A stretch of DNA of 64,000 nt from Enterobacteria phage phiC600P9. Location of the stretch: sequence record MZ681930.1. One strand, written 5' to 3'. Within the stretch, counting starts at the first letter, position 1. Each line of letters begins with the position of its first letter. A program made the translations under genes and the position numbers. Under the pieces are notes generated by a model, which was not told where the DNA came from, ran no database searches, and saw only the letters and a program-made list of their open reading frames with translations. Positions 4,604 to 36,054 of the stretch are shown one piece after another.

Positions 4604-4971
4604 TTAAATTTAATGGCTTGAAGAAGACTAATAATTCTCAAGCAACTTCTTTCATCTTTAACTGTAAAAGAAAGAGGGTCGCCAGATTTCATAGTGATGG
4701 TGCATCCAAAATCAAAATCTTCTGTAACTTCTTCGAAGAAGTCAAATTCTTCATCATAAATTAGAACATTACTCTGAAAACTGTGAAGAATTTTTCCATC
4801 ATTTCCAGATGCTGTACTAATCATTGTAACATTATGGCCTTTCATATCTTCAACGATAAATTCACTAGTCAATATTACAGCATTAATAGAACCATTCCTA
4901 TAAATAGCAGACATTAGATATTTCTTTTCTTCGCCTTCGCGAATACAATACTTCTTACCGATTTTAAACAT
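4600..4971 (-). CDS. hypothetical protein
   Basis: 123-aa ORF, start/stop-coupled with neighbours. Confidence 0.55.
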   Translation of the reverse strand: MFKIGKKYCIREGEEKKYLMSAIYRNGSINAVILTSEFIVEDMKGHNVTMISTASGNDGKILHSFQSNVLIYDEEFDFFEEVTEDFDFGCTITMKSGDPLSFTVKDERSCLRIISLLQAIKFK

Positions 4972-4973
4972 AA

Positions 4974-5150
4974 TTACCCTTTAAGTAAGTCGTAAAAACC
5001 ACCATTCACACGCTTAGGAGCAGAAGGCCGACGAGTAGACAAACGATGACATTTAGGGCAAACATCATTTTCTCGTTCAGAAATCTTTTTAATTTTTTCA
5101 TATTCATGCCCACAATCTTCGGATTGGCATTTATAATCATACATTGGCAT
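4974..5150 (-). CDS. small zinc-ribbon protein (FmdB-like, two CxxC pairs), hand-called
   Basis: 58-aa ORF MPMYDYKCQSEDCGH...CPKCH; AGGAA RBS; exactly fills the gap between flanking ORFs. Confidence 0.5.
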   Translation of the reverse strand: MPMYDYKCQSEDCGHEYEKIKKISERENDVCPKCHRLSTRRPSAPKRVNGGFYDLLKG

Positions 5151-5152
5151 AA

Positions 5153-5572
5153 TTATTCCTTAAAATGTGCTTTCAACATCTGATACAAGGACCATGCCTG
5201 TTCATTATTTTCAATAGTAACTTTCATTACCGGGAATTCTGTGAAATCTTCTATCTGTTCTTGCTCTTCCTGCTCTTGTTCTTCAGCTGCCTGGTATGGA
5301 TTTTCCACTTCATCAAAGAACCCAGCTTCGTTAGTAGAGAGCCAGATAAAGTTTTCGTCAAGGATATCAGCGCCGGCACAACGTCTGAGTACACCTGTGG
5401 ATGTCACAATTTTAGTAGGACGCCCAAGATAATCAGCATCTAAAATTTTAAAAGGTTCCATACCTAAACGTCGTGCATAGATTCCGTTATCAGTATGGTC
5501 TTTAATAAAATTTTCTTGAGCTTGTTTATTTTTAAATTGATACCATTTATTAACTTCAAATTTAATAGCCAT
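5153..5572 (-). CDS. hypothetical protein with acidic EQ-repeat segment (size matches T4 goF, unverified)
   Basis: 139-aa ORF. Confidence 0.5.
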
Positions 5573-5787
5573 TAATAAATTTCCTTCCAGTAAGTTGTAC
5601 CGTCTTCAGTAATTTCACGAAATACGCCATAAATTGGTTGTTTATCACCAACCTTTTCATACACATAAACCGAAGTCAAGTGAGTAAACTTAATGGTGTG
5701 TTCCTTTTGAACTACTACCAAATCTGGATCGAATAATACATCTTCAAATTCGTCATTAGTGCAGTTCTGAACAATTTTACGTTTCAT
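5572..5787 (-). CDS. small hypothetical protein (length matches T4 Cef, unverified)
   Basis: 71-aa ORF. Confidence 0.45.
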
Positions 5788-18746: not shown

Positions 18747-20173
18747 TAAAATTTTAATTCATTTGCCAAAGCATCTAACTGGGCTCGAGTAGATTCATTT
18801 CTTTGATAGCGATTCTGCTCAGCTTGTATCTGTTGTGAACCTGCTACTTCGTTCACTTCAGTTGGAGTAGAATCTTGTTCAATTTCTACCCATTTCTGAT
18901 TTCCTTTTTGAACACCCATCAAAAACTTATTCCATTTATTCTTATCACCATATCGTGATTTGATTTGCTTAATGAGTTGCTGTTCAGCAGCTGCTAGCTC
19001 CTCGGTTTCAATGACCGCAAGCATAAAATCAGCTGTCGCTGGAAGACCAGCAGATTCTGCAATATCGCTCATGTTAACATCGGAAGAGTCCCAAGCTTGT
19101 TTACCAACCTGTGCTGCAGTCCAAAGAACAGTTTCGGTTTCAACAGCCAGAGCACGCAATTCCTCTGCGATAGCTTTAACAGTTGTGTAACTTTTTTCTG
19201 AATAAACTCTAATGCGGCAAGATTTACAAATACCTAGATAGTCGACAATAATGATTGTTGGAACAAAATTCTTCTTGAGCTTCAATTCGTTTAAAAGTGA
19301 TCGAAATGTATTAGCGTCTGCTCCACCAGTAGGATACTGTTTAACGATTAAACGACCAAGAGTAGATTTCTCACGCCATTTTTCCATTTTTCCTTTATAT
19401 TCAGCGTAAGAAATATGCCCATCATCAATGTCATCAAGAGAAACATCGAGCATATTAGCGTCAATACGTTTAGCACAGACTTCTTCTGCCATTTCCATTG
19501 AAATGTAAAGAACATTATGACCGAGTTGTAAATAATCTGCTGCCAATGAACATAGACCTAATGACTTACCAACGTTAACACCAGCCATTAAAACGTTCAG
19601 TGTTCCAGTCTCAGCTCCGCCTTTAGTAATTTTATTTAGAATTTTGAGTTTAAATGGAACCTTACGAGCTTTATTCATATAAGATAGCCAACGTGCTTCA
19701 TAGTCATCCATCCAATCATGGCCAACGTAGCTATCAAATGAAATTGATAATGCTTGGCGCATGATGTCAGGAATAGCACCTACATCTGGCATTTTCTTAT
19801 TTCGTTTTTCTGGAGGAAGCTCAGCATTAGTTTGAATTTCAATTATTTTAGACGTGGCATTAAACATCGCCCTTTGCTGAACATATTTTTCTGTTTCTTT
19901 TACTAACCAGCTGTGGTCTTCTGGAGAATCGGTTAGTTTCGAAATAAGTGTTTTTACACCAGAATATTCTGTTTCAGTAAATGAACTATTTTCTAATGCA
20001 ACATTTAACGCATTAATAGATGGAACGCTATGGTACTCATTGACATGAGATTTAATTAATTTGAATGTATTTTTAGCTGGACCACTTTCAAAATATTCTG
20101 AATCCATATATGGCCAAACTTTTGAAAAATAAGCTTGATCAAATATAAGATGAGAAAGAATAATTTCTACCAC
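18746..20173 (-). CDS. 41: replicative DNA helicase (DnaB-like)
   Basis: 475-aa ORF matching T4 gp41 length; Walker A GVNVGKS, RecA-like core. Confidence 0.9.
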   Translation of the reverse strand: MVEIILSHLIFDQAYFSKVWPYMDSEYFESGPAKNTFKLIKSHVNEYHSVPSINALNVALENSSFTETEYSGVKTLISKLTDSPEDHSWLVKETEKYVQQRAMFNATSKIIEIQTNAELPPEKRNKKMPDVGAIPDIMRQALSISFDSYVGHDWMDDYEARWLSYMNKARKVPFKLKILNKITKGGAETGTLNVLMAGVNVGKSLGLCSLAADYLQLGHNVLYISMEMAEEVCAKRIDANMLDVSLDDIDDGHISYAEYKGKMEKWREKSTLGRLIVKQYPTGGADANTFRSLLNELKLKKNFVPTIIIVDYLGICKSCRIRVYSEKSYTTVKAIAEELRALAVETETVLWTAAQVGKQAWDSSDVNMSDIAESAGLPATADFMLAVIETEELAAAEQQLIKQIKSRYGDKNKWNKFLMGVQKGNQKWVEIEQDSTPTEVNEVAGSQQIQAEQNRYQRNESTRAQLDALANELKF

Positions 20174-32628: not shown

Positions 32629-32815
32629 TATCTAAAATGTTGAAGTTAAAAGATACAGCCCAGTCAGTGCAGACCGTAACCTTTTTAATACAATTATCTT
32701 CAACCTCTAACGGTTCAAACCAATATTCAATAATTTCTTTATGACCAATATCATCTTTTACTTCGCATTCAAAATGCTGACTCATCATAACATTTTTAAA
32801 TTCATCAAAAGTCAT
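32552..32815 (-). CDS. small hypothetical protein (46.2-like)
   Basis: 87-aa ORF coupled to gene 47. Confidence 0.45.
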   Translation of the reverse strand: MTFDEFKNVMMSQHFECEVKDDIGHKEIIEYWFEPLEVEDNCIKKVTVCTDWAVSFNFNILDNDTPKSLQDMAVSCIKDAYCEVFDI

Positions 32816-33831
32816 TGTGTTGCCTCTACATATAACTGATTTGCATATTGAATAAGTGCTTCGCGGTCAGAATCAGTGATGTCTGGAATTGCATTAATGT
32901 ATTCTTCCATCAACGTCTGAAGAGATTGAACTTCAACTTCTTCGCTATCATCTGACTCGACAGAGTTATCAATTTTTGACACAACTCGTAATGAATGCAC
33001 AACTTTTTCTAGTTCAGATTCGAACTTCGTTAGATTTTTGTCTACTTCAGTTACTATAACACGTACTGATAGATTTGTAAAATCTTTATAGTCAATTTTT
33101 CCCTTAAATGGATATTGAATTCGACGATGCCAGGTAGTGTTGTTTGGAATAAATTCCATTCGTTCTGTTTCTGTATCAAACATCCAGAACCCGCGAGGGT
33201 CATTCTCGTCACCTGCAGTTAATGTCCATGGTGTCCCAATATATCTAACGTTAGCAGCCTCAGAGATAGTATGGAAGTGACCAGACCACACTTCTTTGTA
33301 AGTCTTAAGGAAATCAGGTTCAAGACCGTGAGATTTCATTCCTTTATAAAAATAAAATCCATTCAGTTCCCAGTGACCAACACAAAAAGAAGCAGATGAA
33401 GTTTTGATGTGTTCAAGAATTTCACCAGTATTTTCTTCACACATCCAAGGAATTAAATCAATCAAACATCCGTCAAAATCTACTGTAGTAGGCTTATCAT
33501 ATACTTTAACATTAGGATATTTAGCCAAAAGCTCAGTAGAAGCATTTGGATGCATTACATTTTTATAGTGGAGATCGTGATTTCCTACAATAGTATGTAA
33601 TGTGATTCCAGCGTCATCAAGCATTTGAACTATTTCACGGGCAAACTCCATAGTTTTATGCGTGATCGCTTTTCGTACATCAAAAATATCACCGTATTGA
33701 ATCCATACAGTAATTCCATTTTTCTTAGAATATTCTATCGCTTGCTTAATTCCGTCAAGTTGAATACCGCGAATCCATTCATCATCAGCTTTAACGCCTA
33801 AATGCCAATCACCCAAGTTTAGTATTTTCAT
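32812..33831 (-). CDS. 47: recombination nuclease subunit (Mre11/SbcD-like phosphoesterase)
   Basis: 339-aa ORF; calcineurin-like phosphoesterase motifs (GDWHLG, GDIFD, GNHD). Confidence 0.9.
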   Translation of the reverse strand: MKILNLGDWHLGVKADDEWIRGIQLDGIKQAIEYSKKNGITVWIQYGDIFDVRKAITHKTMEFAREIVQMLDDAGITLHTIVGNHDLHYKNVMHPNASTELLAKYPNVKVYDKPTTVDFDGCLIDLIPWMCEENTGEILEHIKTSSASFCVGHWELNGFYFYKGMKSHGLEPDFLKTYKEVWSGHFHTISEAANVRYIGTPWTLTAGDENDPRGFWMFDTETERMEFIPNNTTWHRRIQYPFKGKIDYKDFTNLSVRVIVTEVDKNLTKFESELEKVVHSLRVVSKIDNSVESDDSEEVEVQSLQTLMEEYINAIPDITDSDREALIQYANQLYVEATQ

Positions 33832-34432
33832 GGTGTCTTTTCCATCCTAATTTAGCTGCTTTTGAAACTAGTTCTTTAATTTTTCCTTTTGTCCATTCAG
33901 GACCAGGAGGTTCATGACATAACATTTGCTTAACTCCGTTATTATACCATTTTTTACCTTTATTATGCGATGAAGCTTTAAATTTATTTGACCTTCCTTT
34001 TACATAGCCTTCTGGAATATACGGTAAAAAGGCAGATTTTCCTGTTAATGGGTCATGTGAATGTATGTTTCCTTTACAATTATGAGAACCATATAATGGA
34101 TGATTTTGTCCTTTAATATCTCTTCCAAATGAACCTTTTGGAGCAGCATATGACATATTAAAGAATAATGGATTTTTAACCGCATCATGCAAACGTTGAT
34201 AATATAACTCACATTTAATAGCTTCTTCGCGCGTATCAAATTCATCTAAAATGCATGAATCAAATAAATGTGGGTTATCTGAAAGTTCTTCATTATAAAT
34301 TTTCTTATACTTTTTAGATAAAACTGATCCATGATATCCGGCTAAATGCCTATCTAAAGATGTAGATCCAATATAAAAAGGAGGAAGTTTATCTCCACTA
34401 TATATTGTTAAATAAGTTATATATTTTTTCAT
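33809..34432 (-). CDS. GIY-YIG-like protein (possible Seg-type homing endonuclease or degenerate relative)
   Basis: 207-aa ORF with TIY-x9-YIGST-x2-LDRH and downstream Glu/Asn resembling the GIY-YIG core; overlaps gene 47 start by 23 nt. Confidence 0.5.
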   Translation of the reverse strand: MKKYITYLTIYSGDKLPPFYIGSTSLDRHLAGYHGSVLSKKYKKIYNEELSDNPHLFDSCILDEFDTREEAIKCELYYQRLHDAVKNPLFFNMSYAAPKGSFGRDIKGQNHPLYGSHNCKGNIHSHDPLTGKSAFLPYIPEGYVKGRSNKFKASSHNKGKKWYNNGVKQMLCHEPPGPEWTKGKIKELVSKAAKLGWKRHHENTKLG

Positions 34433-34590
34433 ATATCAAGAACCGTCATTGAAATGCAAAATAAAATTATTGAAATAAATCCATCTGGAGTGCTAAAGAA
34501 CCCAATCCAGCACGCTCTAGTGAATAGATAAAATGCAAGAAAAAGTATCACATATCCAAGAAATATCATTATATCAAACTCCGTATAAAG

Positions 34591-34608
34591 CTAAAGGGCC
34601 GAAGCCCT
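34591..34608 (-). promoter_or_regulatory. UUCG-tetraloop RNA hairpin at the alpha-gt 3' end
   Basis: aaagggccgaagcccttt inverted repeat. Confidence 0.5.
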
Positions 34609-35811
34609 TTATTTTGTAATAATGTCAAACTGTTCTTTAAAGCAGAAGCTTGAATCTTGATGTTGATACAAAAATTCATACGCTTTTTCTCGCTCACGGT
34701 CATAAAGAGCTCGGTCAGATGACAGTTCTTTAATACGTTCAAATGTTGATTCCATGTCATTTTCATCAAACCAAACGATACCGCTATCATGAGAAATTAA
34801 CGGAGTATTATCAACACGGAATTTTAAATTTTCGCCAGTAGATTTCCAAAATACTGGAATTGTTCCGCATGCACCAAGCTCGAGATGAGTATATTCTAAA
34901 GAACGCTGTAGATATTTTTTATCTAATTTACTCAGCTGATAACCAAATCCGGATTTACTCATGCGTTCAAGCATTTCGCTATTTACATAACGGTCGAGAA
35001 TTTGCGTTGGCAAATTAGGAGCAATTTTAATTTGGTCTACTTGATGAAGACGATAATACTCGTATGGAATTCCTTTTTCTTTAATAGGAATGAACGCTGG
35101 AGAACGTTCCAGACCTTCCATAATAGTACTTAGTCCTGCAGGTTTAAGATGTTTTTCATGAAAATCAAACATCTGATAAAAGCCTTTCCATGTAGTAGTA
35201 CGACCAATCCAACGGTTGATATTCATGTTAATTTCAGAAACATCTTTCCAGTAGGTTGATCGAACCTTCGCAATATCCATAGGAGGCTGAAAGTTATATA
35301 CGGTCGGTGCTTCTTCAATATCATCAAACAGAGAAACTGTTTCTGGATACCATTCTTTCATTAAAACTTTATTAAAATCGCCATTATCAGAATGGCTAAA
35401 AATAACATCAGCTCGACGAACAGTTTCTTCTAATCCCAAATTTCGACGCAAAGAAAGAGAAGAATGGTCATGCTGATAAACTACAACACGAACCGAAGGT
35501 TTAATGTTATCAATAATTTTTTTATAGTTATTAATTGTGTCTTCTTCGACTGAAGTAGCAGGAACTGAATTGATAACTAGAATATCACAATCATTTACCA
35601 GCTTAAGTGTTTTATCGTATTCTTTTGCCAATAAAACCGGAATTGAAAATGACTTATAATCATGTGCGCAATTACGAGTAAATGATTTATCTTTAGCATA
35701 AACCAAAGTTACTTCATGACCATTTTTAATAAACCAATCACGTTGCTCAAGAGAAAATTTAGTTACACCGCAACCTTCAAGACCTCGAGCCATAAAAATA
35801 CATACTTTCAT
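34609..35811 (-). CDS. a-gt: DNA alpha-glucosyltransferase
   Basis: 400-aa ORF, N-terminus near-identical to T4 alpha-gt as recalled. Confidence 0.9.
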   Translation of the reverse strand: MKVCIFMARGLEGCGVTKFSLEQRDWFIKNGHEVTLVYAKDKSFTRNCAHDYKSFSIPVLLAKEYDKTLKLVNDCDILVINSVPATSVEEDTINNYKKIIDNIKPSVRVVVYQHDHSSLSLRRNLGLEETVRRADVIFSHSDNGDFNKVLMKEWYPETVSLFDDIEEAPTVYNFQPPMDIAKVRSTYWKDVSEINMNINRWIGRTTTWKGFYQMFDFHEKHLKPAGLSTIMEGLERSPAFIPIKEKGIPYEYYRLHQVDQIKIAPNLPTQILDRYVNSEMLERMSKSGFGYQLSKLDKKYLQRSLEYTHLELGACGTIPVFWKSTGENLKFRVDNTPLISHDSGIVWFDENDMESTFERIKELSSDRALYDREREKAYEFLYQHQDSSFCFKEQFDIITK

Positions 35812-35826
35812 TTAATATCCTCATTG

Positions 35827-35850
35827 TTTTGGTTTATTTTACCAAAAATT
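35827..35850 (-). promoter_or_regulatory. middle promoter (MotA box TTGCTTTA + 11 nt + TAAAAT) for alpha-gt
   Basis: minus strand TATTGCTTTATAAATTTTTGGTAAAAT. Confidence 0.5.
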
Positions 35851-35852
35851 TA

Positions 35853-35872
35853 TAAAGCAATATAGGAGCCGA
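35853..35872 (-). promoter_or_regulatory. UUCG-tetraloop RNA hairpin
   Basis: ataggagccgaagctcctat inverted repeat. Confidence 0.5.
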
Positions 35873-36054
35873 AGCTCCTATCCGCATAATACGCCATACA
35901 GAGGCTCATTAGAGCTTCTAAATTTTATACGCTTATATGTTATAGTTCCTTCTGCTTTAGCTTTATCATGAGACTCTTTAAAGCGTCTCATCATTTCTAC
36001 TTTAGAGGAACGAATTTTATTATAATCTATTTCACAAGTCTGGGCGTTCATCTT

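Follow-up and report, generated by a model that had tools for sequence, protein, structure and literature searches.

The first 64 kb of the genome of Enterobacteria phage phiC600P9 (record MT630408.1, Tequatrovirus; hereafter the window) raise the question of what a 207-amino-acid (aa) open reading frame (ORF) is doing directly upstream of the recombination gene 47, at a site that is empty in T4. A preliminary description of this DNA proposed a Seg-type homing endonuclease on the basis of GIY-YIG-like residues and suggested that a change from GIY to TIY might mark a degenerate or repurposed copy. Our analysis indicates that the ORF is an intact, free-standing Seg-type GIY-YIG homing-endonuclease gene (HEG) that encodes two modules, occupies a promoter-less 601-bp cassette, and would spread by homing, a reading to which we assign a probability of roughly 0.8. 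HEG is a new, uncharacterized element of a well-known kind, closest to SegA of T4 and not degenerate. Free-standing homing endonucleases drive localized marker exclusion and mosaicism in T-even phages, and to our knowledge only the T4 set of these enzymes has been studied.

Nuclease fold, family signature, and selection

The resemblance to a GIY-YIG nuclease core noted earlier goes beyond chance. The sole Pfam match of the HEG protein, whose N-terminus reads MKKYITYLTIYSGDKLPPFYIGSTSLDRH, is GIY-YIG (PF01541; E = 8e-4; aa 4-84; profile positions 2-74 of 78), a profile that is also matched at E ≤ 0.01 by 13 of 38 relatives (best, 2.4e-5), and fold searches rank GIY-YIG nucleases at the top. An AlphaFold2 model built from the family alignment, with a predicted local distance difference test score (pLDDT) of 82 overall and 90-98 over aa 1-90, places strands at residues 4-11, 19-25, and 57-65 and helices at residues 26-30, 40-52, and 68-81. 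The modeled N-terminal domain has the three-stranded antiparallel sheet and the helices of the GIY-YIG fold in the order beta-beta-alpha-alpha-beta-alpha, and the top three Foldseek matches in the Protein Data Bank (PDB) are to the catalytic domain of I-TevI (1LN0/1MK0; probability, 1.0-0.96; TM score, 0.60, normalized on the target). The family profile aligns with T4 SegA over 95 columns (hhalign probability, 91.7%; E = 7.7e-7), which supports the Seg-type assignment; its alignment with SegF was not significant (E = 0.2), and a search of NCBIfam with the protein returned no family. The predicted GIY-YIG fold of the N-terminal domain is thus settled by several independent results, with I-TevI and T4 SegA as its closest relatives.

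Public annotation tells a different story. The source record lists the coding sequence of HEG as a hypothetical protein (QNI20147.1), and the protein matches PHROG 10820 (E = 7.6e-94) and the "homing endonuclease" family phrog_314 (E = 7.7e-18). Many records, among them RefSeq and pharokka records and PHROG 10820 itself, label it an HNH endonuclease, a reading in which we place next to no credence: no HNH Pfam profile matched at E ≤ 10, GIY-YIG being the only match, and the label is also ruled out by the GIY-YIG fold of the model, the homology to SegA, and the GIY-YIG annotation of relatives (TG1). The widespread HNH annotation of HEG is wrong, and it appears to have been propagated from the PHROG family annotation.

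Conservation across the family accounts for the residues that first drew attention to this ORF. In the 38 relatives, which extend down to 33% identity, Y33, G35, S39, L56, F57, A71, E75, and N92 are invariant, and Y7, T9, Y11, G13, L16, P17, Y20, I21, G22, S23, and R68 are conserved in at least 90%. The Arg, Glu, and Asn that had been noted after YIG are present as R28, R68 (nearly invariant), E75, and N92, and hhalign sets E75 opposite E75 of I-TevI in an alignment that is itself not significant (E = 0.25). The spacing had been given as TIY-x9-YIG and needs correction, since TIY occupies aa 9-11 and YIG aa 20-22, leaving a spacer of 8 residues.

The odd first strand, [YF]-x-[TV]-Y-L-T-x-Y-x-G-x-K-L-P-P-F-Y-I-G-S-T, is thus a signature of the family and not decay of the phiC600P9 copy. 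Y7, T9, and Y11 lie on alternate positions of one face of strand 1. We consider Y7 (I5-T6-Y7) more likely than Y11 to be the equivalent of the GIY tyrosine, because strands 4-11 and 19-25 pair in the model and both catalytic tyrosines must share one face. This register, which we favor, implies a hairpin loop three residues longer; an ungapped MAFFT alignment sets T9 opposite Y6 of I-TevI, at odds with it. Among 1.84 billion cluster representatives, 1,462 relatives were found at E ≤ 1e-3 and 1,165 at E ≤ 1e-10, and in the majority of the top matches listed the shared part is only aa 1 to ~117.

The reading frame is intact in each of the six Tequatrovirus copies and in four orthologues of other genera. 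Ratios of non-synonymous to synonymous substitution rates (dN/dS; Nei-Gojobori) relative to the phiC600P9 copy are 0.04-0.06 within Tequatrovirus, where four of five copies differ by 15-19 synonymous and 3-5 non-synonymous changes and that of phage Killian by six synonymous changes only. The ratios are 0.09-0.21 for three of the four orthologues of other genera (dS is saturated for the fourth, LC53), and they are similar across both domains of the gene. This pattern of substitution indicates that HEG is under strong purifying selection, and with dN/dS of 0.04-0.2 and a motif that is family-wide, the suggestion of a degenerate or repurposed copy finds no support.

Cassette boundaries, distribution, and site fidelity

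Alignment with T4 identifies HEG as a 601-bp insertion between genes 47.1 and 47, in flanks that are collinear with and nearly identical to those of T4. ATGAAAA stands at both junctions (Table 1), and the insertion boundary is therefore ambiguous by 7 nucleotides (nt). In T4 the start of gene 47 overlaps the stop of 47.1 within an ATGA; in phiC600P9 the HEG start occupies that position and shares the ATGA with the 47.1 stop, and gene 47 starts 23 nt before the HEG stop. The new translation-initiation region of gene 47 is carried inside the 3' end of HEG, and we found no RNA structure that would hide the gene 47 start (z = +0.76). The preliminary description was right about the ORF and its overlap with the gene 47 start; its placement of the ORF between gene 47 and a-gt holds on the gene 47 side, whereas a-gt is not the direct neighbor, as 47.1 intervenes.

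The cassette looks promoter-less and reliant on upstream transcripts. No promoter above background was detected inside HEG, the count of sigma-70-like sites being no higher than in the shuffled control. A terminator-like hairpin (34592-34611) follows a-gt and leads into a MotA-box-like element that other records annotate in two ways, fPS-65 as a terminator and phage Lutter as a promoter. Judged by the T4 consensus, this element is likely a middle promoter and the source of transcripts for 47.1, HEG, and 47. Several T4 endonuclease genes likewise depend on upstream transcripts (PMC2988022).

Presence of the cassette is polymorphic among T4-type phages. We searched with 1 kb of T4 sequence across the site as a probe, which was covered at ≥80% in 501 records. 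The probe matches in one piece, and the site is thus empty, in T4, T2, T6, RB14, RB32, RB9, wV7, HY01, and fPS-65; in carriers it matches in two pieces spanning 1,601 nt. HEG is found at ≥95% identity in 68 records, and a probe for the junction of the HEG 3' end with gene 47 is covered at ≥80% in 73, giving a frequency of ~14% among ~500 Tequatrovirus records. The comparison across T2, T4, T6, and RB phages that had been proposed as a check of mobility therefore favors a mobile element, and in keeping with Seg-type genes HEG is free-standing, co-oriented with its neighbors, absent from close relatives, and precisely bounded. In a published survey of the mobile elements of T4, the 47.1/47 site has no endonuclease gene (PMC2988022 Table 1). 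Only six empty-site contigs were found in IMG/VR, all with the T4-type allele of gene 47, and a search of Gelderlandvirus gave no clear empty site. Shigella phage KNP5 (63% coverage) was considered as a truncated, decaying copy and rejected, the missing part being an assembly gap of Ns.

Eight orthologues that are full-length (51-77% identity) and represent seven genera or groups all lie directly 5' of gene 47, whatever gene is upstream of them. They include those of Salmonella phage SEA1 (Gelderlandvirus), Klebsiella phage KP185 (Jiaodavirus), Serratia phage LC53 (Winklervirus), Escherichia phage QL01 (Dhakavirus), Erwinia phage FBB1, Aeromonas phage L9-6, and AV109-type coliphages. The ..H-E-N.. 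in the tail of the HEG protein is CATGAAAAT read in another frame, and this overlap, read as H/N-E-N, is also found in the orthologues of SEA1, KP185, and QL01 and not in that of LC53. KP185 and about four near-identical records carry a-gt and HEG upstream of gene 47. The gene 47 of KP185 is only 80-84% identical to that of 136 other Klebsiella phages and the upstream flank is unrelated, and for these reasons the Jiaodavirus comparison is uninformative on local clustering; the KP185 block may have been imported whole.

Related nucleases occupy a second site. Yersinia phage TG1 gp009 and Escherichia phage Bp7 gp108 (1998-2681 and 1998-2678, respectively, in the extracted stretches) are paralogues with NUMOD3 C-termini that lie directly 5' of the gene for the large subunit of topoisomerase, with an 8-nt overlap at its start. 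The same nuclease is thus joined to another C-terminus at another locus, so the C-terminal ~100 residues likely set the choice of site, as the locus fidelity of orthologues and paralogues suggests. Such reuse of a nuclease with a new C-terminal module is to be expected of GIY-YIG homing endonucleases, given their two-module architecture. The C-terminal region of the HEG protein is conserved only in the orthologues upstream of gene 47; a NUMOD3-like remnant (NHPLYGSHN) is present in it, and two beta-hairpins are predicted (residues 123-136 and 161-172, the latter including KKWYNNG). No Pfam domain was found in aa 105-207, and no zinc finger or helix-turn-helix was detected in the protein; NUMOD3 repeats occur in 17 of the 38 relatives. 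T4 carries the HNH gene mobA at the topoisomerase site (PMC2988022 Table 1), and two endonuclease families, the HNH one of mobA and that of the GIY-YIG paralogues, have converged on one topoisomerase-gene site. As a separate observation, three IMG/VR contigs (3300008266_000538, 3300008120_000180, and 3300034062_003225) each carry two copies of the nuclease family a few kb apart. Paired nuclease copies on one contig are typical of phages heavily colonized by homing endonucleases.

Table 1. Features at the HEG locus of phiC600P9 (window coordinates)
Feature	Position	Strand	Description	Source
HEG	33809..34432	-	Free-standing seg-like GIY-YIG homing-endonuclease ORF; 207 aa + stop, ATG start	ORF list
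N-terminal GIY-YIG nuclease domain (predicted)	34121..34432	-	aa 1 to ~104	
C-terminal region	33812..34120	-	aa 105-207; presumed DNA-binding, site-determining	
Upstream junction repeat ATGAAAA	34426..34432	-	7 nt; holds the HEG start codon	T4 alignment
Downstream junction repeat ATGAAAA	33825..33831	-	Gene 47 start; 601 nt from the upstream copy	T4 alignment
Overlap of HEG and gene 47	33809..33831	-	23 nt; HEG 3' end (..H-E-N-T-K-L-G-stop) with the first gene 47 codons	
Substitution cluster, gene 47 nt 9-18	33814..33823	-	Candidate target/self-immunity determinant	
Gene 47	32812..33831	-	SbcD/Mre11-like recombination nuclease subunit; downstream neighbor, presumed target gene	
Gene 47.1	34429..34569	-	46 aa; predicted membrane protein in T4; upstream neighbor	
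Stem-loop and promoter-like element after a-gt	34568..34611	-	GGGCTTCGGCCC (stem-loop), then MotA-box-like AGCTTTA, 12-nt spacer, TATAAT	

A candidate target in gene 47 and its alternatives

Where such an enzyme might act is suggested by the flanks of the cassette, which we compared between 6 carriers and 12 T4-type non-carriers, taking in 300 nt on the upstream and 450 nt on the downstream side. Fixed differences occur at four positions only, gene 47 nt 9, 10, 15, and 18. All four are synonymous, and codons 3-6 read ATA CTA AAC TTG in carriers and ATT TTA AAT TTA in non-carriers. The 12 non-carriers are identical over gene 47 nt 1-20 and have a mean divergence of 8.9% over nt 21-80. In HEG-less Tequatrovirus this second interval (33752-33811) occurs as two sharply different haplotypes, ..GAGTGGATTCGCGGTATTCAAATT.. 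and ..GAGTGGGTTCAATCCATTCAGTTG... In Dhakavirus, the carrier QL01 and the empty-site phage dhaeg differ at nt 9, 10, 12, 15, and 18 and are identical over the next 20 nt; CUA3, tried as a second empty site in that genus, has a run of Ns at the locus and was rejected.

We lean tentatively, and at slightly less than even odds, towards these four bases being part of the recognition or cleavage site, with changes that would protect the carrier, because the pattern is replicated in a second genus and there is no linked change upstream or beyond nt 18. Searches of the entire phage collection with synthetic junctions showed how the alleles are combined with the site. The empty site with the T4-type allele accounts for ~428 records (at 90-95% identity, as 4 mismatches in 73 nt would give), and 11 of the 12 carrier records among the matches listed (73 cover the junction probe) have ATA CTA AAC TTG. 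If the four bases are the target, empty genomes with the carrier-type allele would be resistant sites left by precise loss of the cassette through the ATGAAAA repeat.

We hypothesize that the HEG protein is translated from transcripts shared with 47.1 and 47 and that in a mixed infection it would cut the HEG-less allele at or near the 47.1/47 junction. Resection and recombination-dependent double-strand-break repair would then copy the cassette and nearby markers from the donor, and the outcome would be intronless homing with marker exclusion. The carrier allele would be protected by the insert, which splits the junction, and by the four synonymous changes in gene 47 codons 3-6. For the repair, the carrier genome could supply in trans the gp46/47 nuclease, of which the presumed target gene encodes one subunit and which is listed as "possibly" taking part in such repair (PMC2988022). 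Nuclease activity, cut position, immunity, and homing are thus proposed for the HEG protein by analogy.

Several observations weigh against this account. The Pfam comparison that had been suggested as a check cuts both ways, as the match at E = 8e-4 scores 20.1 bits, below the gathering cut-off of 22.6, and PDB sequences gave no GIY-YIG match by phmmer (sequence) or hmmsearch (38-member profile). R28, at the canonical Arg position, is K or R in only 30 of the 38 relatives; the first-strand motif is non-canonical, the register of the "GIY" tyrosine being ambiguous between Y7 and Y11; and a literature search found no paper and no cleavage or homing experiment on HEG. At the locus itself, the carrier-type allele occurs at an empty site in at least 8 records (SHFML-26, BCPEco_001, BCPSen_003, PBM-1, Ec_YwIITB1, UGKSEcP1, and EPIMAM01 among them), and one record among the matches listed, Escherichia phage ERS-1 (PP337211.1), combines HEG with the T4-type allele. 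The ERS-1 record is marked UNVERIFIED_ORG, has a length of 175 kb, and contains numerous homopolymer indels of one base, including in HEG, a-gt, and gene 47; it may be a low-quality or chimeric assembly and not a real recombinant. Finally, cleavage by the characterized free-standing enzymes of T4 usually falls hundreds of bp away from the genes that encode them (PMC2988022).

Given such distant cutting, the four-substitution cluster could be merely tightly linked donor sequence. It is possible, if somewhat doubtful, that HEG encodes a homing endonuclease that cuts elsewhere (further in gene 47, in gene 46, or in a-gt) and that the four changes are a hitch-hiking remnant of the donor. Free-standing T4 endonucleases, including SegF, SegG, and MobE, cleave hundreds to thousands of bp away (PMC2988022), and the sites nearest to an insert remain linked longest. 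The ERS-1 combination would fit a remnant, as would the HEG-less carrier-type alleles, which sit on varied downstream haplotypes; that of UGKSEcP1 is T6/RB32-like, and a recombination breakpoint must therefore lie just after gene 47 nt 18. A remnant is harder to reconcile with the sharp limits of the cluster, with the alteration of the same codons 3-6 in the independent genus pair QL01/dhaeg, and with the perfect conservation of nt 1-20 among HEG-less phages when the following 60 nt vary. Moreover, ATA-CTA-AAC-TTG, which a donor would need to carry, is in none of the orthologue-bearing genera examined.

We regard it as improbable that the HEG protein no longer homes and has been retained for the initiation region of the essential gene 47 or recruited to a different function (for instance, interfering with phages that co-infect the cell, or amplification driven by recombination), as has recently been reported for SegB. 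Gene 47 does start inside the HEG 3' end, in an arrangement conserved across genera, and T4 endonuclease genes are known to be retained through host expression signals embedded in them (PMC2988022); an anti-defense role has been reported for SegB (PMC13096335). Retention for the initiation region would, however, constrain only the last ~30 nt, whereas dN/dS is low in each of the two domains and the catalytic residues do not vary. The cassette is also absent from ~86% of close relatives, in which the empty site works without it, and when the cassette is lost precisely through the ATGAAAA repeat, the arrangement of T4 returns.

Returning to the homing reading with gene 47 as target, a more specific version joins recognition of the first ~6 gene 47 codons to a non-canonical first strand, a combination that we consider unlikely as a whole. 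The recognized codons would sit just upstream of those for the GDWH metallophosphoesterase motif of this Mre11/SbcD-like nuclease, and the enzyme would break the competitor's gene for double-strand-break processing while drawing on the copy of its own genome for repair. Self-immunity would need no more than the four synonymous changes, and resistant empty sites of the SHFML-26 type would already be circulating. The YxTYLTxY...LPPFYIGS family (>1,000 clusters) would have replaced the classical GIY tyrosine by a non-canonical first-strand arrangement.

The interest of HEG lies in its site, which T4, T2, and T6 leave empty, and in its constant position next to gene 47 in at least seven genera or groups. 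Putatively sensitive, carrier, and putatively resistant empty alleles occur naturally and are separated by four synonymous bases, a well-defined set of substrates for Seg-type specificity, and the paralogues at the topoisomerase site form a natural domain-swap pair for the retargeting of a GIY-YIG module. Where carriers and non-carriers are combined in a phage-therapy cocktail, inheritance near genes 46 and 47 would be expected to be biased. The general interest is modest; HEG is valuable chiefly for a target hypothesis that is sharply defined and testable, together with the alleles and paralogues for testing it.

Comparison with known endonuclease genes

The endonuclease complement around this locus differs from that of T4. 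The HNH homing-endonuclease gene mobB of T4 lies between a-gt and a-gt.2 (4886-5680 of the T4 stretch), and phiC600P9 has no gene there: a-gt (34609..35811) is followed by 66 nt (35812-35877) and then by a 57-aa ORF at the position of a-gt.2. Within 2 kb there are thus two endonuclease genes that one phage has and the other has not, HEG in phiC600P9 and mobB in T4. A tblastn search of the window found no homologue of T4 SegA or SegF at E ≤ 1e-3, and phiC600P9 appears to be without segA and segF, as the uvsX/beta-gt and soc/56 regions should fall in the window. A tblastn match of the nuclease domain at 18971-19138 (E = 0.009) was dismissed as chance, being antisense inside gene 41.

The closest parallel is SegA of T4, which is experimentally active and targets uvsX (PMC2988022 Table 1). 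The nuclease domains are homologous and share the layout YxG-S/T...(D)GYxGS...R-x-x-A-x-x-x-E...N, and both genes are free-standing, co-oriented with their neighbors, and just upstream of a recombination gene, SegA sitting between uvsX and beta-gt. The two proteins are only ~25% identical, however, and differ in their C-terminal domains and loci; the first strand of HEG reads YxTYLTxY, with a longer GxKLPP hairpin, in place of YTYVITN in SegA. Unlike SegA, HEG is absent from T4. I-TevI, the best structural match, differs in being intron-encoded, in its canonical GIY and R27, and in having no significant sequence similarity to the HEG protein.

In genetic setting, HEG resembles the pairs SegF/gene 56, SegG/gene 32, and MobE/nrdB. 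These are likewise intergenic cassettes that are polymorphic in T-even phages, the carrier and naive alleles likewise differ by polymorphisms in a conserved neighboring gene, and marker exclusion with co-conversion of flanks is the behavior to be expected. They differ from HEG in that they cleave well away from the insertion (PMC2988022), whereas the HEG-linked polymorphisms lie only within 18 nt; SegF has no detectable similarity to the HEG protein, and MobE is an HNH enzyme. TG1 gp009 and Bp7 gp108 differ in their NUMOD3-repeat C-terminus and topoisomerase locus, but they share with HEG a nuclease domain that is ~45-70% identical over aa 1 to ~115 and the same style of insertion across the start of an essential gene downstream.

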